DNA from: a virus
Lineage: Duplodnaviria; Heunggongvirae; Uroviricota; Caudoviricetes
IMG/VR virus record: IMGVR_UViG_2802429247_000008
Location: 1 to 12,156 of that record
Strand: one strand, 5' to 3'
Length of the DNA stretch: 12,156 nucleotides
Shown here: positions 1-12,156 of the stretch, piece after piece
Position numbering within the stretch: position 1 is the first letter of the stretch
How the letters are laid out: each line of letters begins with the position of its first letter
The notes under the pieces: model-generated
The model's input: only the letters and a program-made list of their open reading frames with translations
What the model was told of the DNA's origin: nothing
Database searches by the model: none
Made by a program: the position numbers and the translations under genes

Positions 1-531
1 TGAGGTGAGCATATCACCTCTGTTCAGGTGGCCAAATTCAGTGTGCCACTTCAGATTGAACGCAGCAGCAAGACGGCTGGCGGTATAGTTAATCCCCTCG
101 TTGCGTGCTTCCGCACGTACTTCAGCCAGGAAAGCATCGGTGGCTGGGGTTTGCGGCATCCTTCCGTCTATTGCGCAGATATACGCATCAGATAGTTCAT
201 CCTGCTCGCCATCAAACACGTAGCAACTCTGTACGATAAATTTATTCAGCCCCGCATTCTCCGCCGCAAGCGCAGCAAGATTAGTCTCCAGCTCTGCAAT
301 GCGTTTGCTTTGGGCTTCCCGTTCATCCAGCAGTGCCAGCACGGTAGCCGGATTGGCTGCTGCTATGAATCGCTTATTGGCGCGATTATCTGGTCCTGAG
401 CATGATGCTATGTAGTAATTTGCGTTCAGTCCGGCATCAGCAATTACCCCATAGTAATCATCAGAACACCATTCGCCAGGGGTTGCATTTTCTGCCGCCA
501 TTCGCAGTGCCTGGTAATTAATGTTGCTCAC
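1..531 (-). CDS. Phage protein, tentatively ead/Ea22-like; first 177 codons only, gene continues past the window start
   Basis: Minus-strand frame is open from 531 down to position 1. GTG at 529-531 is preceded by AGGAGG (revcomp of 538-543) with a 6-nt spacer; an in-frame ATG at 499-501 is an alternative start. Product begins VSNINYQALRMAAENATPGEW and has a coiled-coil-like stretch (DEREAQSKRIAELETNLAALAAENAGL). Family assignment is from memory and unverified. Confidence 0.55.
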   Translation of the reverse strand, partial: MSNINYQALRMAAENATPGEWCSDDYYGVIADAGLNANYYIASCSGPDNRANKRFIAAANPATVLALLDEREAQSKRIAELETNLAALAAENAGLNKFIVQSCYVFDGEQDELSDAYICAIDGRMPQTPATDAFLAEVRAEARNEGINYTASRLAAAFNLKWHTEFGHLNRGDMLTS

Positions 532-823
532 TGGTTGCCTCCTGAAAAATAACTGCATGCCCCAGCTTCTCCGCCAGTGCCAGTTCTGCCTTAGCGCCTG
601 CTGACCGCTGCCAGCCTTTCAGCATGTAAATCGCATCCACACAACGAATCATTGCCATGCAAATATCCATGTAGTGTGGCTGTGTCAGTCCGTCCGGAAG
701 TACTGCCGGACTTAAGACGGTATGCCCTTCCCGTTTCAGTTCCTCTTCCGCCTTGTGGAACGCCTCACGGTTGAAATTTTTATACCCGGTCATCGGACCA
801 GCGATATAAACCCTCACCCTCAC
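518..823 (-). CDS. DUF4406-family protein (nucleoside 2-deoxyribosyltransferase-like fold)
   Basis: 101-aa ORF. N-terminal YIAGPMTG motif followed by EGHTVLSP and a C-terminal LKGWQRSAGAKAELALA segment, the pattern I associate with DUF4406/Rcl-like proteins of lambdoid prophages. GTG start at 821-823 with AGGAGG 7 nt upstream; overlaps the stop of the upstream gene (GTGA). Confidence 0.78.
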   Translation of the reverse strand: MRVRVYIAGPMTGYKNFNREAFHKAEEELKREGHTVLSPAVLPDGLTQPHYMDICMAMIRCVDAIYMLKGWQRSAGAKAELALAEKLGHAVIFQEATSEQH

Positions 824-1236
824 GCCATCACCTCCTGAAAATTACCCTGATAAAACGCCAGCACACGCTGCATAACCTTGCTTTTCCGGCACTCGCGACA
901 GATTATGTTCTGACGTCTGTCGTAGCGGCGTATCTCTCCATCTGGTAATGAATAAATCAGGTCAGGATCGCTCTTTTTCTTCACCGCCGCTTTCGACATC
1001 TTTTCGATGGCTTTTATCCAGTCCTTACGCGCCTGCGCTGAAGGGAATATTCCATACCCTGAACCATATACAACACCACTGGCTACCAGCTCTTTCGTCA
1101 GAACTTCTATCAGATGTCTCGTCGCCCCAATTTCATTTTCCAGTTGTTTACGCGTTTTCCGACCATCTCTGCGTACCAGTTCCACAATGCGCGCCTTCAC
1201 TTCTTCCCGCTGTTCGGAAGTAAAAACTTTTGCCAC
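820..1236 (-). CDS. Hypothetical phage protein, 138 aa, possible winged-helix N-terminus
   Basis: Clean 138-aa ORF with GTG start at 1234-1236 and AGGAGG 4 nt upstream (revcomp of 1241-1246). Its stop overlaps the start of the DUF4406 gene. I recognise no family; the basic N-terminal third and a single CRECR motif are the only features. Confidence 0.7.
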   Translation of the reverse strand: MAKVFTSEQREEVKARIVELVRRDGRKTRKQLENEIGATRHLIEVLTKELVASGVVYGSGYGIFPSAQARKDWIKAIEKMSKAAVKKKSDPDLIYSLPDGEIRRYDRRQNIICRECRKSKVMQRVLAFYQGNFQEVMA

Positions 1237-1276
1237 AAGTCCTCCTGAAAATTACCTCATGATCTGAAATAAACAC

Positions 1277-2224
1277 TTACCCCCTGAAGCCCGGCGGAAT
1301 TTCGGTATCCGGTTCAGAAATGTGATTCACGCAACGCTGTACAGGCGAACGCCCCAGACGAATAACCAGCTCATCCCATTTTTCGCGAAGCTTTGACGGG
1401 CTCATGACGTTTTTTACCCAGAATGGATCCCGCTGTACCCGACCAAACATTTCGCAAATTTGTCTGTGAGTTCTGCCATCCAGCATCCGCATTGTGCGCA
1501 CATCATTGGCCCATGCAGTCCAGTTGGGTTCTTTCGGTCGCATGATTTCGCCATCATCGCTGGCAGCCTGCTCGTAAAGACTCACGATTCGTCCCCAGAT
1601 CCACTGCGCACACGCTAAATCTTCCTGGCTACCCCACTGGCGTTTTTTCGCACTGAACACAACCGCGTCAGGGTGTCGGGTTAAAAAATCCTGTTCAGCC
1701 GTCTGCGAGTCCGGTTGCGAAGCTTCCGGACGAAAAGATCTTTTATCTGACGGATCAGGTTTTAATACTGACGGATCGGGGCCAACCATCGCCCCCCTAT
1801 CCGGCTGTTTTTTATCAATGGTTGATCCATCAAAATTTGAGGGGTCAACCGTTGAGGGGGCAATATTTGACGGGTCATTTTTTGCCTGGCTAATTTTTCT
1901 TTTCGGTTTATATGCCTCACGCGCCGCCGCTGCTGCTGCTTCTAGTTTTTCCACATTAAGACGGTAGATATTGCTTACATTACGCCCACCGACCTTACGT
2001 TCCTCCTTCGTCAGCCAGCCGTTCTTTTCCAGTTCCGCTATCGCAGCTTTAACCGTTGATTCACTCTTTGCCCCAATCTGACGACGAATGGTCTCCACTG
2101 CAGGCCATGACACACCTTCGTCATTGCTGTAATCTGCAAGGCGAGCCATTACTGCCACCCTGGATAAGATCATGCCGGTGAAGGCGCACCCTTCCCAGAC
2201 AAGACCATGAAGCTTGCTGCTCAT
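1277..2224 (-). CDS. Phage replication initiator (HTH N-terminal domain, low-complexity linker, DnaT-like C-terminal region)
   Basis: 315-aa ORF with ATG at 2222-2224 and GGAG 7 nt upstream. N-terminus (GMILSRVAVMARLADYSNDEGVSWPAVETIRRQIGAKSESTVKAAIAELEKNGWL) resembles HTH replication/replisome-organiser proteins. An Ala-run and Pro/Ser/Asp-rich linker is encoded by the iteron-like DNA repeats. Position after the cro-like and ydaT genes matches an O-like role. Confidence 0.8.
   Translation of the reverse strand: MSSKLHGLVWEGCAFTGMILSRVAVMARLADYSNDEGVSWPAVETIRRQIGAKSESTVKAAIAELEKNGWLTKEERKVGGRNVSNIYRLNVEKLEAAAAAAREAYKPKRKISQAKNDPSNIAPSTVDPSNFDGSTIDKKQPDRGAMVGPDPSVLKPDPSDKRSFRPEASQPDSQTAEQDFLTRHPDAVVFSAKKRQWGSQEDLACAQWIWGRIVSLYEQAASDDGEIMRPKEPNWTAWANDVRTMRMLDGRTHRQICEMFGRVQRDPFWVKNVMSPSKLREKWDELVIRLGRSPVQRCVNHISEPDTEIPPGFRG
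1757..1886. repeat. Iteron-like repeats inside the replication gene (candidate origin of replication)
   Basis: Five direct copies of a 10-bp motif: TGACGGATCA 1757-1766, TGACGGATCG 1778-1787, TGAGGGGTCA 1847-1856, TGAGGGGGCA 1862-1871, TGACGGGTCA 1877-1886, at spacings of 21, 69, 15 and 15 bp. One inverted copy (TGATCCATCA, 1832-1841). An AT-rich stretch follows at 1887-1920. The layout is analogous to lambda ori inside gene O. Confidence 0.55.
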
Positions 2225-2247
2225 AAAAAACTCCGAACACCGTGCTT

Positions 2248-2673
2248 TTAGTGCATCACCAGGGCATTTCCCGCCGGACCACCACGATTCATCTGATTGA
2301 AACCAGCGATCGCCACTGCGACAAAATCATCAGCGTCTCTCACCAGTCGTTCCCGCGTCTCCACCAGCTCCCGAAAATAGGCTGAACTGTGGCTGCGCAT
2401 TCGGGCCACCAGCAGAGGTGGCATTGCTTTTTCGATCGCTGGTAACAACGCCTGAATTTTTTTAACCGCATCAGGGGTGTCTTTCTCCACCCAGCGGAAA
2501 ATCTTCTGAGTATTGCGAGCCAGGGCTTCTGGGTGTGAATCGTCGTACAGTTCCGGAAACGTCATACCCAGTTCAAAATAAGCCCGGGTTATTTCAGCTG
2601 CCGGAACTTTTTCTCCGTCCGGATGCGCCCAGGCATTCATCGCCATGCGGATGTGCTCATGCTTGATTTTCAT
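2248..2673 (-). CDS. ydaT: YdaT-family protein (CII-like regulator, historically annotated as a toxin)
   Basis: 141-aa ORF starting MKIKHEHI, directly downstream of and overlapping (ATGA at 2670-2673) the cro-like gene. Size, N-terminus and position match Rac YdaT. Confidence 0.72.
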   Translation of the reverse strand: MKIKHEHIRMAMNAWAHPDGEKVPAAEITRAYFELGMTFPELYDDSHPEALARNTQKIFRWVEKDTPDAVKKIQALLPAIEKAMPPLLVARMRSHSSAYFRELVETRERLVRDADDFVAVAIAGFNQMNRGGPAGNALVMH

Positions 2674-2897
2674 GAATCACTCTTCCTTTCGCTCTGAGTG
2701 GTATCCTTCTTTTTGTAAAGCTCTGGGTTCAAAGATAATTTTCCCTTGGAGTATGCAGCAGCTTCCGCAGCTCTCCCTTTCGGAACTATTTCACCGGGGC
2801 GCTTACGCCACATGTAAATAGCTTCGCGGGTTATCCCATAAAAATCAGCGACCCTCTGAACAGAGCCAAAAAACTGAACAAGTTCATCAACTCGCAT
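2670..2897 (-). CDS. Cro-like HTH regulator (YdaS family)
   Basis: 75-aa ORF transcribed divergently from the repressor. HTH-like segment VADFYGITREAIYMWRKRPGEIVP. ATG at 2895-2897 with AGGAGG 6 nt upstream (revcomp of 2904-2909). Confidence 0.7.
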   Translation of the reverse strand: MRVDELVQFFGSVQRVADFYGITREAIYMWRKRPGEIVPKGRAAEAAAYSKGKLSLNPELYKKKDTTQSERKSDS

Positions 2898-2993
2898 TTC
2901 ACCCTCCTAAAATCTAAGTATTTTTAGATTACAGGATAATTTTTTTTAGGTCAATGCGATCTAAAATAATTTATATTCAACTCGCGGGAGAAA
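2898..2993. promoter_or_regulatory. Divergent promoter/operator region between the cro-like and repressor genes (OR-like)
   Basis: 20-bp near-palindrome AATCTAAGTATTTTTAGATT at 2911-2930 and a further ATCTAAAAT half-site at 2959-2967. Candidate minus-strand promoter: -35 TTGACC (revcomp of 2949-2954), 17-bp spacer, -10 TAATCT (revcomp of 2926-2931) overlapping the palindrome. Candidate plus-strand -10 TATATT at 2972-2977 for the repressor. Confidence 0.55.
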
Positions 2994-3641
2994 ATGATGG
3001 AAAGCCTTGGCATCAGGCTTAAGAAACTCAGAAAAGATAAGGGACTCACCCAAGTAGAACTGGGTAAGCTTTCAGGCGTGACTGGGGTTACTATAGGGTA
3101 CTGGGAGAAAGATCTAAACGAACCCGGCAGCAAAGCTCTAAGTAAGTTAGCCCAAGCATTAGGAACTACTGAGTCCTATCTCCTGTATGGAGTATCGTCT
3201 CCTGAACTATCTTTTGTGCAGAGCAATCCAGGCACCAAGATCCCCTACTTTTCGTGGGGTGACGCGATTTCTTTCCTAATCTTAGAAGGAGAGAAAACAA
3301 TGGGAAATGTCGATAGGATCACCACATTCTTTGATGTAGTGGAAGGTGATTTTGCCGTTTCAATGCCTGATGACACTATGCATAACCCCTCAGGGTCGCC
3401 AAGTATCCCAGTTGGTGCCACTGTGATCCTAAGACCAGGAGAAAGTTATAAAAATGGCAGTATCGTCGCTGTAATAGTTCCAGATCCTCTTACAAATGAA
3501 CCGTCTATGACTATAAAAAAATTAGTTATTGATGGAAAACTTGTGTATTTAAGCCCTCTCAATCCGCGCTATCAATCATCCTTGCTTACGCCAGAGTGTA
3601 AAATTGTTGCCGTAGCAAAAGGTGTACAGTTCAACCTATAA
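2994..3641 (+). CDS. cI/LexA-like prophage repressor (N-terminal XRE HTH, C-terminal S24 peptidase domain)
   Basis: 215 aa. HTH at LTQVELGKLSGVTGVTIGYWEKDLNEP. C-terminal VEGDFAVSMPDD (Ser of the catalytic dyad) and MTIKKLVIDGKLVYLSPLNPRY (Lys of the dyad), closely resembling lambda cI [22 protein letters not shown]. Two tandem ATGs at 2994 and 2997. Confidence 0.85.
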   Translation: MMESLGIRLKKLRKDKGLTQVELGKLSGVTGVTIGYWEKDLNEPGSKALSKLAQALGTTESYLLYGVSSPELSFVQSNPGTKIPYFSWGDAISFLILEGEKTMGNVDRITTFFDVVEGDFAVSMPDDTMHNPSGSPSIPVGATVILRPGESYKNGSIVAVIVPDPLTNEPSMTIKKLVIDGKLVYLSPLNPRYQSSLLTPECKIVAVAKGVQFNL

Positions 3642-3663
3642 CCCTGCCATGTTCTTGAACTTA

Positions 3664-3690
3664 AGGTCGGTTATGCCGACCTTTTTTTTA
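3664..3690 (+). terminator. Rho-independent terminator downstream of the repressor gene
   Basis: Stem GGTCGG (3665-3670) and CCGACC (3676-3681) around a 5-nt loop, followed immediately by an 8-T run (3682-3689). Confidence 0.7.
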
Positions 3691-3708
3691 AATTAATTTA
3701 GATTCCTC

Positions 3709-3737
3709 TTGACTATAAAACTAAATACTTTTAGATT
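3709..3737 (+). promoter_or_regulatory. pL-like promoter with overlapping operator-like site (OL-like)
   Basis: -35 TTGACT (3709-3714), 17-bp spacer, -10 TAGATT (3732-3737). The 20-mer AAACTAAATACTTTTAGATT (3718-3737) matches the OR palindrome at 17 of 20 positions. An extra TTAGATT at 3698-3704. Confidence 0.45.
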
Positions 3738-3908
3738 TATTGCATGCCAACCCATCCCGTCCCCACAGAATGCAGGGCAATACTTCGAGTTACCAGGCAG
3801 TGGTCAGGGGTTAAGTAGCCAGCCCGAGGCGTATGAACATGACGGCGGGATTCAAATTTTGCAGTGCAGCAGTTAGTTCCGCCACCCGGCGTTAAGGGGA
3901 GAGATAAG

Positions 3909-4043
3909 ATGGTGCATTACGAAGTAGTTCAGTATTTGATGGATTGTTGCGGTATCACTTACAACCAGGCTGTGCAGGCTTTACGCAGCAACGACTGGGA
4001 TCTCTGGCAGGCAGAAGTCGCTATACGTAGCAACAAGATGTGA
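3909..4043 (+). CDS. ydaG: YdaG-like small protein (44 aa)
   Basis: ATG at 3909 preceded by GGGGAGAG. Product MVHYEVVQYLMDCCGITYNQAVQALRSNDWDLWQAEVAIRSNKM. Size and position (between repressor and ydaF/sieB) match Rac ydaG. Below the length cutoff of the supplied ORF track. Confidence 0.62.
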   Translation: MVHYEVVQYLMDCCGITYNQAVQALRSNDWDLWQAEVAIRSNKM

Positions 4044-4053
4044 GATTCGCAAA

Positions 4054-4209
4054 ATGCAAAAAATCGACCTCGGCAACAACGAATCCCTGGTGTGCGGCGT
4101 GTTCCCCAACCAGGATGGAACGTTCACTGCCATGACGTATACCAAAAGCAAAACATTTAAAACCGAAACTGGTGCGCGCCGATGGTTGGAGAAGCACACA
4201 GTAAGCTAA
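4054..4209 (+). CDS. ydaF: YdaF-like small protein (DUF1391, 51 aa)
   Basis: ATG at 4054. Product MQKIDLGNNESLVCGVFPNQDGTFTAMTYTKSKTFKTETGARRWLEKHTVS. Matches my recollection of Rac YdaF in size and position. Its stop overlaps the sieB stop convergently. Confidence 0.65.
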   Translation: MQKIDLGNNESLVCGVFPNQDGTFTAMTYTKSKTFKTETGARRWLEKHTVS

Positions 4210-4694
4210 CGATTAAAACGTCTACTCCTGCTGTTCCAGAATAACTTCATAAAATGGGAGTATTTTTCGGTGACGAGATAATAAGAACAGTTTGCGCTAT
4301 CACTCTGATGTTGAATGATGCCCTTCCGTTCTAATTTTTTCATAACCGGGTTACGGCAAGGAGAAGTGATAATAAGATTTCCTGTTTTAAGGAAATCTTT
4401 AAATACAGCGATTTCTTTCTCAGATAAACGAAGCAATACTCGTTGCTCTGGTAGTAATGAATAATGCTTTTGAATATGTGCTCGCAATCTTGAGAAGGAA
4501 ATGGCGACCACGAAAGAAAAGGCAAAAACGATAATCTGAAAGAGCCAAGATATTTCAGTATAAGCATTGAATGCGACAGTAAACTCTTTCGGTATCAGCC
4601 AGAGAGTGAGACCAAAAATGATAATCGTATACATAAGTCTTTCGAGTGGCTCGTTAGCAAAAAGTTTCAACAATGGAGTAAATACATCCAACAT
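4206..4694 (-). CDS. sieB: Superinfection exclusion protein B
   Basis: 162-aa product from ATG at 4692-4694 (MLDVFTPLLKLFANEPLERLMYTIIIFGLTLWLIP...), with hydrophobic membrane segments. The supplied ORF extends 41 codons further upstream to 4817, but that extension looks non-coding. Confidence 0.8.
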   Translation of the reverse strand: MLDVFTPLLKLFANEPLERLMYTIIIFGLTLWLIPKEFTVAFNAYTEISWLFQIIVFAFSFVVAISFSRLRAHIQKHYSLLPEQRVLLRLSEKEIAVFKDFLKTGNLIITSPCRNPVMKKLERKGIIQHQSDSANCSYYLVTEKYSHFMKLFWNSRSRRFNR

Positions 4695-4912
4695 ATCAAT
4701 AACTCTCAACTGTAAGGGTATTGAAATGTTAACACAAGCTCTCGCTGTAGGGGTATAGCCGAGACCACCGAAGCCCGGAGGTGGTGAAATAAAACCGGGC
4801 ACAACACGAAGGCGCATTTCCGATATCCATAAAGAGTCGGTCTTGTCTGTTAAATTTAAATGGTGGGAGTGCGCCTCCGGTTGTAAATAACGACATTGCT
4901 GTGTGTAGTCCT

Positions 4913-4960
4913 GGCGGCATCAGTTTTTTTCTTGAAGTTCGGCTGATGTCCGCCCTTTTT
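4913..4960 (+). terminator. Terminator-like hairpin plus T-run in the sieB/kilR divergent intergenic region
   Basis: Stem GGCGGCATCAG (4913-4923) pairs with CTGATG(T)CCGCC (4943-4954) with one bulge, followed by CTTTTT (4955-4960). The 19-nt loop is large for an intrinsic terminator, so confidence is low. Confidence 0.3.
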
Positions 4961-5135
4961 AAAGTGAATTTTGTGATGCGGTGAATGCGGCTAAGCGCAC
5001 GTGGCACAGTTAAAAGTCATGTTAGTCCTTATTGGTTTGGGTGGGAAAGCCGACTGTAATTGTTAACTGGTTGCAGTCACCTGGAGGCACCAGGCACCGC
5101 ATCAACAAAGTTCATTTGTAAAAATGGAGATAATT

Positions 5136-5357
5136 ATGATTGCACATCACTTCGGAACTGATGAAATACCACGTCAGTGTGTGACTCCTGGCGATTATGT
5201 TCTTCATGAAGGCCGGACATATATTGCCTCGGCAAACAATATTAAAAAGCGAAAACTATATATTCGTAACCTGACCACAAAAACATGCATTACTGACTGC
5301 ATGATTAAAGTTTTCCTCGGTCGTGATGGTTTACCTGTAAAGGCGGAATCATGGTGA
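5136..5357 (+). CDS. kilR: KilR-like killing / cell-division inhibitor protein (73 aa)
   Basis: ATG at 5136 with GGAG 6 nt upstream; the supplied ORF starts 4 codons earlier at 5124 with no SD. Product [35 protein letters not shown].... Position between sieB and ydaE matches Rac kilR. Sequence identity is from memory only. Confidence 0.6.
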
Positions 5358-5527
5358 TGACTAAGAAAATAAAATGTGCTTACCACCTTTGCAATAAAGG
5401 GGTTGAAGAAAGCAAAAGCATTAAAAGACCACTTCATTTCATGCGTGGAGTTATACCAACGACGGAAATGAAAAAATATTGTAGTGAAATCTGTGCCGAA
5501 AAAGACAAGATGGCACACGAACTTTAA
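5357..5527 (+). CDS. ydaE: YdaE-like small Cys-rich (zinc-binding) protein, 56 aa
   Basis: ATG at 5357 overlaps the kilR stop (ATGA). Product [56 protein letters not shown] carries C-x4-C ... C-x3-C. Below the ORF-track length cutoff. Confidence 0.62.
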   Translation: MTKKIKCAYHLCNKGVEESKSIKRPLHFMRGVIPTTEMKKYCSEICAEKDKMAHEL

Positions 5528-5601
5528 TTAACTGACTATGCGAAACTGAATTCATGCCAGCAATGGCAGGGATTCGCTCAACCTTAATTAAGGAGAAAAA
5601 C

Positions 5602-5877
5602 ATGATTACTAATTATGAAACCACTATTGTAACTACTGATGACATTGTTCACGAGGTTAATCTGGAAGGAAAGCGTATTGGCTACGTGATTAAAACAGAA
5701 AATAAAGAAACCCCATTCACTGTAGTTGATATCGACGGTCCATCAGGCAACGTTAAAACACTTCACGAAGGTGTCAAAAAAATGAGCCTGGTGCATATCG
5801 GAAAGAATCTGCCCACAGAAAAAAAAGCCGAATTTCTGGCAACTCTGATTGCAATGAAATTAAAAGGTGAAATCTGA
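5602..5877 (+). CDS. racC: RacC-like protein (91 aa)
   Basis: ATG at 5602 with AGGAG 6 nt upstream; the supplied ORF starts at 5554 with no SD. Product MITNYETTIVTTDDIVHEVNLEGKRIGYVIKTENKETPF.... Lies immediately upstream of recE, as in Rac. Confidence 0.6.
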   Translation: MITNYETTIVTTDDIVHEVNLEGKRIGYVIKTENKETPFTVVDIDGPSGNVKTLHEGVKKMSLVHIGKNLPTEKKAEFLATLIAMKLKGEI

Positions 5878-5882
5878 AAGAA

Positions 5883-5907
5883 ATAGCCTGCGTATGGCGC
5901 AGGCTAT
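5883..5907. repeat. Perfect 10-bp inverted repeat between racC and recE
   Basis: ATAGCCTGCG (5883-5892) and CGCAGGCTAT (5898-5907) around a 5-nt loop. No downstream T-run on the plus strand, so not a canonical intrinsic terminator. Confidence 0.5.
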
Positions 5908-5978
5908 GAACAGTGTGTATCCGGCAAGATCATTCACTGAACAAAACGAATTTTAATCTGAGTTGAGGTTAAAAAACA

Positions 5979-8900
5979 ATGAGCACAAAACCACTCTTCC
6001 TGTTACGGAAAGCGAAAAAATCATCCGGTGAACCTGACGTCGTCCTGTGGGCAAGCGACGATTTTGAATCGACCTGTGCCACTCTGGACTACCTGATCGT
6101 TAAGTCAGGTAAAAAACTGAGCAGCTATTTTAAAGCTGTTGCCACGAATTTTCCTGTCGTTAATGACCTGCCCCCTGAAGGTGAGATCGATTTTACCTGG
6201 AGTGAACGCTATCAACTCAGCAAAGACTCCATGACCTGGGAACTAAAATCGGGAGCAGCGCCAGACGACGTTCACCATCAGGAGAATGCTCAGGAAACCG
6301 AAGAACTGACGGGAGGGCAGGAAGAAAACACACTGGCAGACGCTCACGGGGATTGCCAGGATTGCGAAGTTTCTGTATCTACTTTGCGGTTCACACAGCG
6401 TCTTCTGCACATTTTTACCTATGCGGCCGGGGATCGGAAATACCTGCATCATGCCACCCGAGAACAACGCGAACACATTACTGCTCTTGAGATGGATCAG
6501 GAAAACAGCTATGTCCAGAATCTGCTGTTGGCCATACGCGGCATGGCAGAACCGACAACTCTGGATAATGCCGCCCTGCTCCGCCTGACTGATGCAATTA
6601 AGGGGGTTTTCTCTATCACGAAAAAACATCAGCCCTATGAATTTAAGAATTTCATTTCAGCCTGGCTGGATACCGAACACATTGATCGCGGTCTTCTGAC
6701 AAAAGAATGGCGAAAAGGGAATCGTGTTTCACGCATCACTCGCACGGCTTCCGGTGCTAATGCTGGCGGCGGGAACCTCACCGATCGCGGCGAAGGTTTC
6801 GTCCACGATCTGACGTCACTGGCGCGCGATGTAGCCACTGGCGTACTGGCCCGTTCAATGGACGTGGACATCTATAACCTTCATCCGGCACACGCTAAAC
6901 GCATTGAGGAAATTATCGCTGAAAATAAACCGCCCTTTTCTGTTTTCCGCGACAAATTCATCACCATGCCTGGCGGGCTGGATTATTCACGCGCCATCGT
7001 GGTTGCGTCCGTGAAAGAAGCACCAATTGGGATCGAGGTCATCCCCGCGCACGTCACTGAATATCTGAACAAAGTACTGACTGAAACCGATCATGCCAAC
7101 CCTGATCCGGAAATCGTGGATATTGCCTGCGGTCGCTCCTCTGCCCCGATGCCGCAGCGTGTAACAGAAGAAGGAAAACAGGATGATGAAGAAAAACCGC
7201 AACCATCTGAAACAACGGCAGATGAACAGGGAGAGGCTGAAACAATGGAACCGGACGCAACTGAACATCATCAGGACACGCAGCCGCTGGATGCTCAGTC
7301 ACAGGTAAATTCTGTTGATGCGAAATATCAGGAACTGCGGGCAGAACTCCATGAAGCCCGGAAAAACATTCCATCAAAAAATCCTGTCGATGCCGATAAA
7401 TTGCTTGCTGCATCACGTGGTGAATTTGTTGACGGAATTAGCGACCCGAACGATCCGAAATGGGTTAAGGGGATCCAGACTCGCGATTCTGTGTACCAGA
7501 ACCAGCCAGAAACGGAAAAAACCAGCCCGGATGTGAAACAACCTGAGGCAGTAGTGCAACAGGAACCGGAAATAGTCTGCAATGCCTGCGGTCAGACTGG
7601 CGGAGATAACTGCCCTGACTGTGGGGCGGTGACGGGCGACGCAACATACCAGGAAACATTCGATGAAGAGAATCAGGTTGAAGCTAAGGAAAAAGATCCG
7701 GTGGAAATGGAAGGCGCTGAACATCCGCACAATGAGAATGCTGGCAGCGATCCGCATCGTGATTGCAGTGATGAAACTGGTGAAGCGTCAGCTCCTGTAG
7801 CAACTGAAATCATGTGGCCGTCATATTTCGAGCCTGGCCGCTATGAAAACCTCCCGAACGAGGTTTATCACTCCGCCAACGGAATAAGCAGCACGATGCT
7901 GAAGGATGCCCGTATCAGCCTGATGTATTACCACGGACGGCACATTGCCGGAACTATTCCGAACGAGGAAAGTGATGCACTGCTGCGTGGGCGGATCATT
8001 CACAGCTATGTTCTGGAAACGGATAAATTCGCTGATGAATATGCCATTCCGGTACCGGTTCCTGAATATGTGGTTACTACTTCTAGCGAACTGATCGCCA
8101 TCATTAAAAAACACAATGCCAGTCTGCCAGCACTGATGACACCAGAGCAGATGAAAGAGTGGATCGAAAGCTACAACAGCACTCTTATACAGCCACTGTC
8201 TGTAAGTGCCGGGGCCGAAGAAACAGGCATCCTTTACGGTTCGCTTCCGGTGGAATTTCGGCGTATTCCTGAGGGGGAAAAACACACAGCATCAGCAATG
8301 AAAGCCTGTATTAAAGAATACAACGCAAGCCTCCCTCCTCTGTTGAAAACCAGTGGAGCACGGGAGCAGCTTCTGGATCAAATTGAAACTGTAGACCCAG
8401 AACTGGCAAAAAAAGAACGTGCTAAATCTTTGCCTTACAACATCAGTGGCACAAAAGAGCAATTAACCGAAATCGCACGGAAAATTCGCCCGGAACTGGT
8501 GACACTGGAGGACTGGCAAAAACGCCAGCAAGAAGAAAATGCCGGGAAAACGTTTATCAGTCCGGAGATGTATGAACAGGCAAAAAATATTCACGCGGCA
8601 CTGCAAAACAATACCGATGCAGCAAGGCTACTCAACCACCCGGATCGCAAATCTGAAATCAGCTATTTCGGGTTTGATGAAGAAACCGGGCTGGAAATCA
8701 GGGTCCGTCCTGATATCGAAATCCGGCTGCCATACGAAAGCATTTGCGCTGACGTGAAGTCAGTCAGCCTCGGTTATGTGCGACAGGAACGACTTAAAGA
8801 TCGCCTGCACCGTGAAATTATTGAGCGTGATTATCACCTCAGCGCCGCAATGTATTGCGATGTGGCAAACCTGGACAAATTTTTCTGGATCTTCGTCAAC

Positions 8901-9101
8901 AAAGATGCTGGCTATCACTGGGTGGCAGTCGTGGAAGCCTCGCAGGAACTCCTGGAACTTGGTCGACAGGAATATCGCCGGACGCTACGCCAGATAAACG
9001 AAGCCCTGGAGACAAACAACTGGCCAGCACCGATTACCGAAAGTTATACCGACGAATTAAACGACTTTGATCTTCGTCGTCTTGAAGCACTGAGCATCTG
9101 A
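5979..9101 (+). CDS. recE: Exodeoxyribonuclease VIII (RecE-family 5'-3' dsDNA exonuclease), 1040 aa
   Basis: N-terminus [65 protein letters not shown] is the RecE start as I recall it. Long acidic linker. C-terminal PD-(D/E)xK-type motifs ([22 protein letters not shown]). SD GAGG upstream of ATG 5979. Confidence 0.88.
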
Positions 9102-9112
9102 GGAAGGACACA

Positions 9113-10165
9113 ATGAACGAATTAACTCAACAAGAAAATATTAACTCTAATGTTGCGGTTTTCAGCCCTCAGTCCCTGGCTGCAATTCAGACATTTTCCC
9201 AGGTAATGGCTTCCGGCATGGCTACTGTACCGGAACACCTCCGGGGAAATCCATCAGACTGCATGGCCATCACCATGCAGGCGATGCAGTGGCAAATGAA
9301 CCCTTACGCAGTAGCTCAGAAAACTTTCGTTGTGAATGGTGTGCTCGGATATGAAGCGCAACTGGTTAATGCCGTAATCAGTACTCGTGGGCCGCTAACC
9401 GGGCGTATTGAATATGACTGGTTCGGGCCGTGGGAAAAAATTATCGGGAAATTTGAAATCAGGAAGAGCGACAAAGGGAAAGAATATCGTGTACCTGGCT
9501 GGAAGCTGGCCGATGAAAACGGGATCGGTGTTCGTGTCCAGGCAACACTACGCGGCGAAAGTAAACCACGCGTACTGGAATTACTTCTGGCGCAGGCCAG
9601 AACACGTAACTCAACGCTATGGGCCGACGATCCTCGCCAGCAGCTTGCCTATCTAGCGCTGAAACGCTGGGCGCGCCTTTATTGCCCCGAAGTGATTCTT
9701 GGAGTGTACACCAGGGACGAACTGGACGAGCCACAGGAAAAAATCATTAATCCGGTTCAGGAACATAAAAACACTTCCGCTTGCCGCGCGGAACGTGAAA
9801 CAACAATTATTGAGCAGGATGCCGGGGAAAACTGGATCGATGCTTTCCGTGAACGTATTGAGCAGGCACAAAGCACCGGGGAAACAACAGCACTTCGCCA
9901 GGAAGTGGAAGATCATAAAAATACACTTGGCGCTCTCTATACGGAACTTAAAGGAAAAGTGGTTCAGCGTCATCACCGTCTCAATGCTATTGCCCGTATC
10001 GAGAAGATGATAAATGACCTACCTTCTTCAGGTGATCCAGAAGCAGAACAAAAATTTACTGCTCTGGAAAATACGCTGAATGCTGCCCGGCCACATCTGG
10101 GTGAATTATATGAGGCGTATAAAACGACACTGACAGATATGAAACCAGAATATATCGGCTCCTGA
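9113..10165 (+). CDS. Single-strand annealing protein of the RecT/Red-beta superfamily (Red-beta-like), 350 aa
   Basis: Immediately downstream of recE (11-nt gap, SD GAGGAAGGA). The segment WADDPRQQLAYLALKRWARLYCPEVILGVYTRDELDE resembles lambda Red-beta WQSHPKRMLRHKAMIQCARLAFGFAGIYDKDEAE. It does not resemble K-12 RecT as I remember it. Confidence 0.7.
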   Translation: MNELTQQENINSNVAVFSPQSLAAIQTFSQVMASGMATVPEHLRGNPSDCMAITMQAMQWQMNPYAVAQKTFVVNGVLGYEAQLVNAVISTRGPLTGRIEYDWFGPWEKIIGKFEIRKSDKGKEYRVPGWKLADENGIGVRVQATLRGESKPRVLELLLAQARTRNSTLWADDPRQQLAYLALKRWARLYCPEVILGVYTRDELDEPQEKIINPVQEHKNTSACRAERETTIIEQDAGENWIDAFRERIEQAQSTGETTALRQEVEDHKNTLGALYTELKGKVVQRHHRLNAIARIEKMINDLPSSGDPEAEQKFTALENTLNAARPHLGELYEAYKTTLTDMKPEYIGS

Positions 10166-10175
10166 TATTGACTTT

Positions 10176-10213
10176 GGCGGTGTAGCCTCACCGCCATCAC
10201 AAAATTTTATTTT
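10176..10213 (+). terminator. Hairpin with distal T-rich tract after the annealase gene (weak terminator or attenuator candidate)
   Basis: Stem GGCGGTG (10176-10182) and CACCGCC (10189-10195) around a 6-nt loop. The T-rich tract AAAATTTTATTTT starts 5 nt later, so it is not a textbook terminator. Confidence 0.3.
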
Positions 10214-10228
10214 ATGAGAGAAAAGACA

Positions 10229-10423
10229 ATGCGGTATGAAAAAGTCAAACCATGCCCTTTTTGTGGTTGTCCATCAGTAACGGTGAAAGCCATTTCAGGA
10301 TATTACCGCGCGAAGTGTAACGGATGCGAATCCCGAACCGGCTATGGTGGAAGTGAAAAAGAAGCACTCGAACGATGGAATAAACGAACCACTGGAAATA
10401 ATAATGGAGGTGTTCATGTATAA
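10229..10423 (+). CDS. ralR: Restriction alleviation protein (Lar/RalR family), 64 aa
   Basis: Product MRYEKVKPCPFCGCPSVTVKAISGYYRAKCNGCESRTGYGGSEKEALERWNKRT has the CPFCG ... CNGC zinc-ribbon typical of Lar. The supplied ORF starts 5 codons upstream at 10214; the ATG at 10229 is chosen by homology. Confidence 0.8.
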   Translation: MRYEKVKPCPFCGCPSVTVKAISGYYRAKCNGCESRTGYGGSEKEALERWNKRTTGNNNGGVHV

Positions 10424-10604
10424 AATTACCGCCACTATTGAAAAGGAAGGTGGCACTCCTACTAACTGGACAAGGTACTCAAAAACAAAATTAACCAAAT
10501 CAGAATGCGAAAAAATGCTCTCAGGTAAAAAAGAAGCAGGCGTTTCCAGAGAGCAGAAAGTAAAACTGATAAATTTTAATTGCGAGCAACTTCAGTCCTC
10601 GTGA
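10416..10604 (+). CDS. ydaC: YdaC-like protein (DUF1187), 62 aa
   Basis: ATG at 10416 with GGAGG 5 nt upstream; overlaps the ralR 3' end by 8 nt. Product MYKITATIEKEGGTPTNWTRYSKTKLTKSECEKMLSGKKEAGVSREQKVKLINFNCEQLQSS. The supplied ORF 10344-10604 carries an N-terminal extension I consider spurious. Confidence 0.62.
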   Translation: MYKITATIEKEGGTPTNWTRYSKTKLTKSECEKMLSGKKEAGVSREQKVKLINFNCEQLQSS

Positions 10605-10703
10605 ATTGCATTGTATTCAAATTAAAACTTCATAGCTGATTATTAATAATCAACATCGGGCGTCAATTTCAGTCTAACATTGGCGCCTGCCAGAGGTGAT
10701 GCG

Positions 10704-10919
10704 ATGGCACAAGTAATCTTTAATGAAGAGTGGATGGTTGAATACGGCCTGATGCTTCGCACTGGTCTGGGGGCCAGACAAATTGAAGCATACCGCCAGA
10801 ACTGTTGGGTGGAAGGCTTCCACTTCAAACGAGTATCTCCTTTAGGGAAGCCAGACAGTAAGCGAGGGATTATCTGGTACAACTATCCAAAGATAAATCA
10901 GTTTATCAAAGACTCATGA
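10704..10919 (+). CDS. xis: Excisionase-like protein (Rac YdaQ/XisR type), 71 aa
   Basis: ATG at 10704 with GAGGTG 4 nt upstream. Product [49 protein letters not shown].... Ends 1 nt before the integrase start. Confidence 0.72.
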
Positions 10920-10920
10920 T

Positions 10921-12156
10921 ATGTCTAAATTACCAACAGGTGTCGAGATTCGAGGTAAATACATTCGCATCTGGTTCATGTTTCGAGGAAAACGATGTCG
11001 GGAAACATTGAAAGGCTGGGAGGTTACTAACAGTAACATTAAAAAAGCCGGGAATTTAAGAGCGTTGATAGTTCATGAAATCAATTCCGGTGAATTTGAG
11101 TATTTAAGACGTTTCCCCCAGTCCAGCACTGGGGCAAAAATGGTGACAACGAGGGTCATAAAAACGTTCGGGGAGCTTTGTGATATCTGGACAAAAATTA
11201 AAGAGACAGAGTTAACAACAAACACAATGAAGAAAACGAAATCACAATTAAAAACACTCAGGATAATAATTTGTGAGAGTACCCCAATATCACATATTCG
11301 TTATAGCGATATCTTAAACTACCGGAATGAACTGCTGCATGGAGAAACGCTTTACCTGGATAATCCAAGATCCAACAAAAAAGGAAGAACCGTGCGCACA
11401 GTTGATAACTATATCGCCCTGCTCTGTTCGTTGTTACGTTTTGCGTATCAGTCGGGATTTATATCAACCAAACCATTTGAAGGAGTAAAAAAATTACAGC
11501 GAAACAGAATAAAGCCTGATCCGTTATCTAAAACAGAATTCAATGCATTAATGGAAAGTGAAAAAGGACAGAGCCAGAACTTGTGGAAATTTGCCGTTTA
11601 CTCCGGGCTTCGTCACGGGGAACTGGCTGCTCTGGCGTGGGAGGATGTGGATTTCGAGAAGGGAATTGTGAATGTCAGAAGAAACCTGACGATACTTGAT
11701 ATGTTCGGTCCCCCAAAAACAAATGCGGGGATTCGGACGGTAACACTACTGCGGCCTGCTATTGAAGCACTGAAGGAGCAATACAAACTAACCGGGCATC
11801 ATCGCAAAAGCGAAATCACTTTTTATCATCGGGAGTACGGCAGAACCGAAAAGCAAAAACTGCATTTTGTTTTCATGCCCAGGGTGTGTAACGGAAAACA
11901 GAAACCTTATTACTCGGTAAGCAGTCTGGGGGCGAGATGGAATGCAGCAGTAAAACGTGCTGGTATTCGCCGCCGTAATCCGTACCATACGCGGCATACT
12001 TTTGCCTGCTGGTTGTTGACGGCAGGAGCGAACCCGGCATTTATAGCCAGCCAGATGGGGCATGAAACTGCGCAGATGGTGTATGAAATTTACGGTATGT
12101 GGATTGATGACATGAACGACGAACAGGTAGCTATGTTGAATGCGCGGTTATCGTAG
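10921..12156 (+). CDS. intR: Tyrosine-family site-specific integrase (Rac IntR-like), 411 aa, complete
   Basis: C-terminal catalytic-domain motifs (LRHGELAALAWEDVDF; NPYHTRHTFACWLLTAGANPAFIASQMGHETAQMVYEIYGMW). ATG at 10921 sits 1 nt after the xis stop. The TAG stop is the final triplet of the window. Confidence 0.9.
   Translation: MSKLPTGVEIRGKYIRIWFMFRGKRCRETLKGWEVTNSNIKKAGNLRALIVHEINSGEFEYLRRFPQSSTGAKMVTTRVIKTFGELCDIWTKIKETELTTNTMKKTKSQLKTLRIIICESTPISHIRYSDILNYRNELLHGETLYLDNPRSNKKGRTVRTVDNYIALLCSLLRFAYQSGFISTKPFEGVKKLQRNRIKPDPLSKTEFNALMESEKGQSQNLWKFAVYSGLRHGELAALAWEDVDFEKGIVNVRRNLTILDMFGPPKTNAGIRTVTLLRPAIEALKEQYKLTGHHRKSEITFYHREYGRTEKQKLHFVFMPRVCNGKQKPYYSVSSLGARWNAAVKRAGIRRRNPYHTRHTFACWLLTAGANPAFIASQMGHETAQMVYEIYGMWIDDMNDEQVAMLNARLS

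Follow-up and report, generated by a model that had tools for sequence, protein, structure and literature searches.

Among the closest known relatives of the repressor discussed here are lambda cI, P22 C2, 434 cI and phage 21 cI (MEROPS S24), which join a helix-turn-helix (HTH) DNA-binding domain to a Peptidase_S24 domain. Self-cleavage by S24 proteins relies on a Ser in a G-x-S-M motif, a Lys general base and an Ala-Gly or Cys-Gly bond to be cut. LexA K156A and the matching lambda cI Ind- mutants are non-cleavable, and exchanging Ser for Thr in serine hydrolases generally leaves them near-inactive. The LexA changes G85D, the classic lexA3 allele, and S119A are likewise cited as non-cleavable (PMC3121763; PMC4980697). 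The repressor gene analysed here occupies positions 2994-3641 of a 12,156-nt viral sequence (positions 1 to 12,156 of IMG/VR record IMGVR_UViG_2802429247_000008, referred to in full as the window). Its product shares with lambda cI the HTH and S24 domains, the fold and an aligned Lys (lambda K192), and its locus shares the divergent cro gene, the tripartite right operator (OR) and the arrangement of left operator (OL) and promoter PL. It differs in carrying Ala-Ile for Ala-Gly, Thr for Ser149, Asp for Gly and an insertion of 4-6 residues ahead of the Lys strand. We therefore predict, as the likely reading, a catalytically degenerate repressor that does not undergo RecA*-stimulated autoproteolysis and an immunity module that is SOS-blind; unlike for lambda cI, RecA-dependent induction is not expected.

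Two other groups of regulators bear on this prediction. The repressors GfoR/GtgR of Gifsy, DicA/RacR, 186 CI and N15 CB share with the present protein an expected insensitivity to RecA* and a lambdoid context, and RacR is the repressor usually found at this position in Rac. However, they lack an S24 domain, measure only ~136-158 residues (PMC3121763) and, where studied, are countered by LexA-controlled antirepressors (PMC3121763; PMC10432266), whereas the present repressor retains a conserved S24 domain. LexA of Synechocystis sp. PCC 6803, an S24 regulator with neither Ala-Gly nor the Ser, works as a transcription factor outside the SOS response (PMC7567884), but it is a cellular winged-helix LexA and not an HTH_3 phage immunity repressor; its loss is independent. 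A literature search retrieved no description of the degenerate active site of this clade or of an S24 cI with a substituted nucleophile, and the Sakai homologue ECs2766 is unnamed there.

The features of the gene are as follows, with residues numbered throughout on the 215-residue version that starts at ATG 2994.

2994-3641, + strand: open reading frame (ORF) of the cI-like immunity repressor, stop codon included, 215 residues (ORF list).
3018-3182, + strand: N-terminal HTH DNA-binding domain, residues 9-63 (Pfam HTH_3, E 1.5e-12).
3243-3275, + strand: homologue of the cleavage-site strand, residues 84-94 (PYFSWGDAISF), gapless against lambda PVFSHVQAGMF and sister-clade SWVQAG.
3336-3614, + strand: C-terminal domain of Peptidase_S24 fold, predicted to be catalytically degenerate, residues 115-207 (Pfam PF00717).
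3369-3380, + strand: D126-D127-T128-M129, replacing the catalytic G-x-S-M and aligned without gaps to lambda GNSM.
3516-3518 (AAA), + strand: Lys175, equivalent to lambda K192 and LexA K156, the first Lys of IKKL and an invariant alignment column.

Identity to lambda cI in BLASTP is only 24%, and residue equivalences were drawn from five alignments: phmmer against structures of the lambda cI C-terminal domain, BLASTP against lambda cI, and three MAFFT alignments (120 homologues with lambda cI and LexA; 28 selected sequences; ~100 cluster representatives). All five concur. The counterpart of lambda Ala111-Gly112 is Ala91-Ile92 (GCG ATT, codons 3264-3269), the nucleophile column (lambda Ser149, LexA S119) holds Thr128 (ACT, 3375-3377), and the Gly at position -2 of G-x-S-M has become Asp126. 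Three of the four self-cleavage positions are thus substituted; the sole survivor is the Lys general base, Lys175.

An earlier note on this DNA had described a 215-residue cI-like protein of S24 type, which the ORF list and Pfam confirm, and had found no Ala-Gly or Cys-Gly dipeptide anywhere in its 215 residues, which also holds, Ala91-Ile92 being the scissile-equivalent pair in every alignment. Since 37% of composition-preserving shuffles of the protein likewise contain neither dipeptide, their absence alone is weak evidence, and the predicted loss of cleavage takes its weight from the alignments and from the clade-wide conservation of the substitutions. The note further held that the Ser/Lys dyad was kept. 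This is right for the Lys of IKKL and wrong for the Ser: in all computed alignments Ser123 of the motif AVSM, taken as catalytic, precedes the nucleophile column by five residues, and close relatives have S, E, K, T or I at position 123. The proposed cleavage region, a SPEL stretch in the linker with YG or SN at the cut, gives way to the strand at residues 84-94. This stretch reads SPELSF, SPESSL or STEPTL among Escherichia coli alleles, and its likeness to lambda MFSPEL is, by these alignments, coincidental.

The architecture is of the complete lambda-cI type, with HTH domain, linker, cleavage-site strand and S24 beta-domain. ATG 2997 is the likelier start because a Shine-Dalgarno sequence (GGGAG, 2986-2990) precedes it with a spacing of 6 nt; the product then has 214 residues, and the NCBI records also begin there. 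The protein is identical to an NCBI 'LexA family transcriptional regulator' cluster of 506 members (P0001) and falls in PHROG 4 (phrog_4), a large family of transcriptional repressors (E 3e-32). The HTH domain matches the N-terminal domain of P22 C2 (phmmer E 3e-7; template modelling (TM) score 0.96-0.98 to P22 c2 in Foldseek). The PF00717 match (E 1.5e-10) exceeds the gathering score and is restricted to profile positions 31-114, which leaves unmatched the N-terminal part of the profile, where the cleavage site lies. An AlphaFold2 model (mean predicted local distance difference test (pLDDT) score 82) shows five N-terminal helices, a disordered linker at residues 66-80, where confidence is lowest (pLDDT 47), and a beta-domain. 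Its top match in the PDB is full-length lambda repressor (3bdn_A, E 2e-10, Foldseek), and the C-terminal domain superposes on lambda cI 1kca/1f39 with a TM score of 0.80-0.82 and a root-mean-square deviation of 2.1-2.4 A. Pfam and Foldseek matches of the model to lambda cI and LexA structures agree in placing an S24 beta-barrel C-terminal to the DNA-binding domain. The model also draws a helix over Ala91-Ile92 (residues 88-97), which was considered as a sign of an inaccessible site and dropped after a control: the AlphaFold2 model of a canonical relative (P0015) has a short helix over its own Ala-Gly too (residues 84-89), so that secondary structure cannot separate cleavable from non-cleavable forms.

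The substitutions are shared by a whole clade. In a homologue search of 5.8 billion proteins, all 13 matches of at least 49% identity (P0001-P0013, of which P0006 and P0011 are fragments) carry the same three changes; they come from Escherichia, Salmonella, Yersinia, Sodalis and Symbiopectobacterium. DDTM is invariant among these members, and 4-6 residues are inserted directly ahead of the Lys strand. In the cleavage strand, every member but one, which has Ser, holds Ala at P1, and Ile, Met, Thr or Val occupies P1', with Lys in the representative P0122. A sister clade at ~42% identity (P0014-P0120), on the other hand, is uniformly canonical, with SWVQAG, KGDSM and TVKKLVIDG. The cI of mEp460 type, found also in vB_EcoM-689R6, Kati and LLS, has 40-45% full-length identity to the present repressor, the same length class and the conserved strands IPxxSW..., TVKKLVIDG and PLNPRY. 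It differs in its canonical SWVQAG and KGDSM and in its presence in isolated phages, whereas the studied clade has A-[IMTVK] with DDTM and no isolated representative.

Selection on the gene was gauged from the window allele and that of E. coli O157:H7 Sakai, which are separated by 33 synonymous and nine non-synonymous differences. The ratio of non-synonymous to synonymous substitution rates (dN/dS) is 0.07 overall, highest in the segment of linker and cleavage strand (0.29) and 0.024 in the C-terminal domain. The last value means that the degenerate domain is under strong purifying selection, and the domain is, as judged from these rates, functional and not decaying.

The gene is common. Of 5426 complete E. 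coli genomes, 474 (~9%) carry it, with the full-length ORF intact in all 474 and in four allele classes. An allele of 90-95% nucleotide identity (~93.5% among the matches listed) is carried by 346 of the 474, and the listed matches in this band are mostly O157:H7. Of 50,697 deposited phage records, only two contain a member of the clade, and both were assembled in silico from clinical genomes. These records, ON470580 and ON470583, carry an identical cI and were considered as evidence of inducibility; they were rejected as in-silico prophage cuts that include host genes, mtfA and ybt among them. In ON470580.1 (vB_EcoM-606R7, L001 of our comparison set), positions 26457-33024 hold host mtfA, a tRNA-Asn and yersiniabactin genes, among them salicylate synthetase and ybtQ, beyond the integrase, which marks the record as an in-silico prophage excerpt and not a packaged genome.

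The Sakai copy provides a link to experiment. ECs_2766 belongs to prophage Sp14 at serU and is annotated as 'phage repressor protein CI'; it is identical to the window protein at 205 of 214 residues (96%) and has the same A-I, DDTM and IKKL motifs. The two loci share the three substitutions, the operators and the cro/ydaT neighbours, and belong to the same family and immunity type; they differ in backbone, which in Sp14 is of CP-933U type with espJ/tccP at serU and in the window Rac-like with recET at ttcA. Sp14 carries espJ, tccP and pchC. In the scoring of Asadulghani et al. (2009), the repressor of Sp14 counts as intact and conserved, whereas Sp4, Sp6, Sp9 and Sp10 have short ones (PMC2669165). 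In the same study, mitomycin C brought about selective amplification and transcriptional induction of Sp5, Sp13 and Sp15 only; Sp14 underwent no selective amplification and no significant transcriptional change (PMC2669165). 'Regional replication' from the adjacent Sp15 co-amplified a stretch that includes Sp14, and the circles of Sp14, which formed only with mitomycin C and at a low level, were attributed to that process; none arose spontaneously and no packaging was seen (PMC2669165). This behaviour is what a non-cleavable repressor would predict.

Taken with the known Ind- phenotypes and the near-inactivity of Thr in place of Ser, the Sp14 data suggest the following course of events. By means of its preserved C-terminal domain the repressor would oligomerise cooperatively on its operators and repress the promoters PR and PL cooperatively. 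With the scissile pair, the Ser and the -2 Gly lost, RecA* would not stimulate autoproteolysis, and in cis the prophage would therefore not perceive the SOS signal. Such a prophage is probably not switched on by DNA damage, and derepression, if it occurs, would come from stochastic loss of repressor or from a factor encoded elsewhere. If so, the active-site changes offer a simple molecular explanation for the failure of Sp14/CP-933U, with TccP, EspJ and PchC, to respond on its own to mitomycin C. They would also matter for annotation. Prophage inducibility is routinely predicted from domain content, with a 'peptidase S24' repressor taken as SOS-inducible, and this call can be wrong: PGAP names the present repressor 'LexA family protein', and the Sakai study scored the Sp14 copy as intact despite the missing Gly, Ser and Gly.

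A similar loss is seen more widely in HTH-S24 repressors. In a survey of the 80 nearest HTH-plus-S24 proteins (among P0121-P0269) from 1.84 billion cluster representatives at 50% identity, a set ranked by similarity to a degenerate query and in which alignment of the cleavage strand is less certain at ~30% identity, 41 have both the Ala/Cys-Gly and the Ser, 24 have lost the dipeptide and kept the Ser, and 14 have lost both. The nucleophile column of these 14 holds Thr (5), Ala (5), Val (2), Phe (1) or Ile (1); in only one of the 80 is the Ser alone lost, with Ala in its place. Loss of the Ser and loss of the dipeptide are associated (Fisher's exact p = 8e-5), and 15 of the 16 proteins without the -2 Gly are also without the dipeptide. 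The counts indicate that decay of self-cleavage is recurrent in cI-like repressors and suggest that loss of the cut site usually comes first and loss of the nucleophile later. Such frequent and ordered decay would affect genome-wide estimates of SOS-inducible prophages.

Another route of induction was also sought. Scans for LexA boxes over the window and 13 related loci (CTGT-N8-ACAG with one mismatch; CTG-N10-CAG scored against the 20-nt consensus) gave nothing above chance inside prophages, as the window reached 10/20 at best and the other prophages with clade members no more than 12/20, while two host lexA boxes present by chance in the Yersinia loci scored 14/20 in the same scan and served as a positive control. 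Ten ORFs of the window, scanned against PHROG, matched no antirepressor family. No antirepressor gene (ANT, Tum or KilA-type) is annotated in the complete Sp14 (44 kb), in the four other E. coli prophages with this cI or in a Salmonella prophage that carries a clade member. Within the sequence examined there is thus no antirepressor under a LexA box in the same prophage, as known for Gifsy, 186 (Tum) and N15 (AntC). Yersinia and Symbiopectobacterium prophages with members of ~50% identity do have genes with pRha/ANT domains (4335-5006 of locus L009; 15399-16148 and 1-625 of locus L012), which lie inside cI-repressed early operons and have no SOS boxes.

Several observations weigh against the prediction of an SOS-blind, catalytically degenerate repressor. 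Sp14 is defective in other respects (doubtful Xis, morphogenesis genes), so that its failure to excise or package is unspecific, and the array used had no probes for many near-identical lambdoid genes (PMC2669165). In O157 strain PA20, 20-23 of 60 Sp14 genes were up after 12 h of high-dose sulfamethoxazole-trimethoprim (PMC5931665); Sp14 was not excised there, and gene dosage and cross-mapping of reads were not separated (PMC5931665). The window stops ~500 bp past a Ren-like gene, so the nin/Q region of this prophage lies outside it. Finally, Thr128 keeps a hydroxyl, and Thr128, Lys175 and a small P1 (Ala; Ser once) are conserved clade-wide, which could mean residual or altered catalysis and not structure alone.

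That last point is the core of an alternative in which the Thr128/Lys175 dyad still cuts Ala91-Ile92 (Ala-Met, Ala-Thr or Ala-Val in relatives), slowly or on RecA*, and gives weak SOS inducibility. Thr128, Lys175 and the small P1 are invariant or nearly so over ~50% sequence divergence, the strand around the site is conserved as P-x-[FL]-[ST]-[WL]-x-[DE]-[AS], and the related clan-SF signal peptidases tolerate many P1' residues; the late rise of some Sp14 genes in PA20 under SOS-inducing antibiotics (PMC5931665) would fit as well. Yet this requires activity to survive three simultaneous motif departures, in the scissile pair and in G-x-S-M, among them the change of the -2 Gly to Asp; a Ser to Thr exchange and the G85D allele described above speak for inactivity. 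The survey agrees, in that 14 of the 15 Ser losses occur where the dipeptide is gone, with Ala, Val, Phe and Ile among the residues found instead, as fits decay after loss of function; nor did Sp14 respond early to mitomycin C. We regard residual Thr/Lys cleavage as improbable, and non-canonical self-cleavage, one of two options raised in the earlier note, is disfavoured with it. Cleavage of Tyr-Gly or Ser-Asn in the SPEL linker by an intact dyad of Ser123 and Lys (AVSM, IKKL) is hardly credible: it has in its favour a by-eye likeness of AVSM to lambda GNSM and of VSSPELSF to lambda MFSPELRTF, but Ser123 lies outside the nucleophile column and is variable, and the linker at 66-80 is predicted to be disordered, varies among alleles and belongs to the segment with the highest dN/dS. 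It is very doubtful, too, that a defective prophage has left the gene behind as a remnant devoid of function; Rac-like prophages and Sp14 are indeed partly defective and key catalytic residues are gone, but against this stand the low dN/dS, above all in the C-terminal domain, the intact ORF in 474 genomes and four allele classes, the conserved operators and the spread of the clade over five genera.

The other option of the earlier note, a repressor that is not directly RecA-inducible, is supported by the clade-wide loss of the P1' Gly, the Ser and the -2 Gly and by the Sp14 data. The antirepressor that the note took to follow from it fared less well: the window and five further E. coli prophages yielded none, nor did the Salmonella prophage, but those of Yersinia and Symbiopectobacterium hold the genes with pRha/ANT domains described above. 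A RecA-inert repressor switched off by a small antirepressor of Gifsy, 186 or N15 kind, encoded in the remainder of the prophage or in a co-resident one and perhaps LexA-controlled, is compatible with non-cleavability. Antirepressors are the standard solution for non-cleavable repressors (PMC3121763; PMC10432266), and one may speculate that the acidic cleavage-site strand and the loop insertion of 4-6 residues form a docking surface. But besides the negative searches, the ANT genes of the other genera sit in operons that cI itself represses, and Sakai holds several prophages with short repressors, yet mitomycin C left Sp14 repressed (PMC2669165); we consider this route unlikely. Unlikely to a similar degree, in our view, is that the degenerate S24 domain has been repurposed as a sensor, either through Thr/Lys self-cleavage at Ala-Ile under a weaker or non-RecA* signal or as a receptor for a partner, in which case the acidic former cleavage strand ([DE]-[DE]-A) beside DDTM and Lys175 may bind that partner. 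If true, a widespread class of lambdoid repressors would tie induction to a non-SOS cue and would govern mobilisation of the TccP/EspJ effector prophage Sp14.

The predicted SOS-blind repressor sits in an immunity region of lambdoid layout, whose remaining features are given below.

2248-2673, - strand: CII-like/YdaT-family protein, 141 residues, at the end of the shared immunity module (PHROG 163 CII-like activator, E 7e-45).
2670-2897, - strand: cro-like regulator, 75 residues, divergent from cI (PHROG 409/35 transcriptional regulator).
2912-2976, no strand: putative tripartite right operator OR between cI and cro (repeat search and pattern scan).
3663-3691, + strand: intrinsic terminator 3' of cI, a 9-bp stem (five GC pairs) followed by a T-run.
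3686-3737, + strand: putative left operator OL directly 3' of the cI terminator (3663-3683 in this context), with sites at 3686-3703 (10/12) and 3719-3736 (11/12).

Scored against ATCTAA-N6-TTAGAT, the three OR sites lie at 2912-2929 (12/12), 2934-2951 (8/12) and 2959-2976 (11/12), and a PR-like promoter read from the sequence (TTGACC-17-TAATCT, - strand) overlaps the first two. A predicted PL-like promoter (TTGACT-17-TAGATT, 3709-3737) overlaps OL and points into the leftward early operon ydaG/ydaF-kilR-recET-xis-int. Every site of at least 10/12 in the window is confined to the two intergenic regions that flank cI, and the sites are conserved in the four E. coli allele classes. The gene thus has what marks a lambdoid immunity repressor: an HTH_3 domain, a divergent cro-like gene, labelled 'Cro/CI family' in E. 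coli genomes, and repeated palindromic putative operators on both sides. This predicted layout mirrors lambda OR1-3 and OL and would account for the keeping of a cooperative C-terminal domain. An O-like replication gene comes next after that for the CII/YdaT-like protein.

The immunity module spans ~2266-3900, with limits set by blastn against three of the compared loci (L001, L003 and L004), and is 95% identical to modules of unrelated lambdoid prophages at serU, ompW and other attachment sites. The sequence at 3753-12156, on the other hand, which holds ydaG, ydaF, sieB, kilR, recE, recT, ralR, xisR and intR, has its counterpart, at 99.9% identity, in the Rac-like prophage that E. coli strain 135 carries at ttcA and whose own immunity region is a different one with a truncated 'LexA family' repressor of 112 residues. 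As module and flank match different prophages, the window is a mosaic; the recombination joint lies in the PL leader at ~3753-3900, and cI is, on this comparison, the immunity repressor of a lambdoid module recombined into a Rac-like prophage at ttcA. The window as one piece was found in no complete E. coli genome.

Some minor observations concern the Rac-like part. A full-length RalA antitoxin small RNA (Rfam RF02694, 215 bits; 10422-10600, - strand) lies antisense to and adjoining the ralR toxin ORF (10214-10423, + strand); Rac-like prophages have ralR/RalA as their type I toxin-antitoxin pair. The SieB-like ORF (4206-4817, - strand) encodes 203 residues if read from the first ATG, yet its match to the SieB profile of PHROG begins at residue 38 and the homologue in strain 135 is annotated with 162 residues; the true start is probably internal. 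The RecE (exonuclease VIII) ORF (5979-9101, + strand) encodes 1040 residues with a long acidic middle of low complexity, and in other prophages with the same immunity module RecE is split or swapped for a shorter 'exonuclease'.

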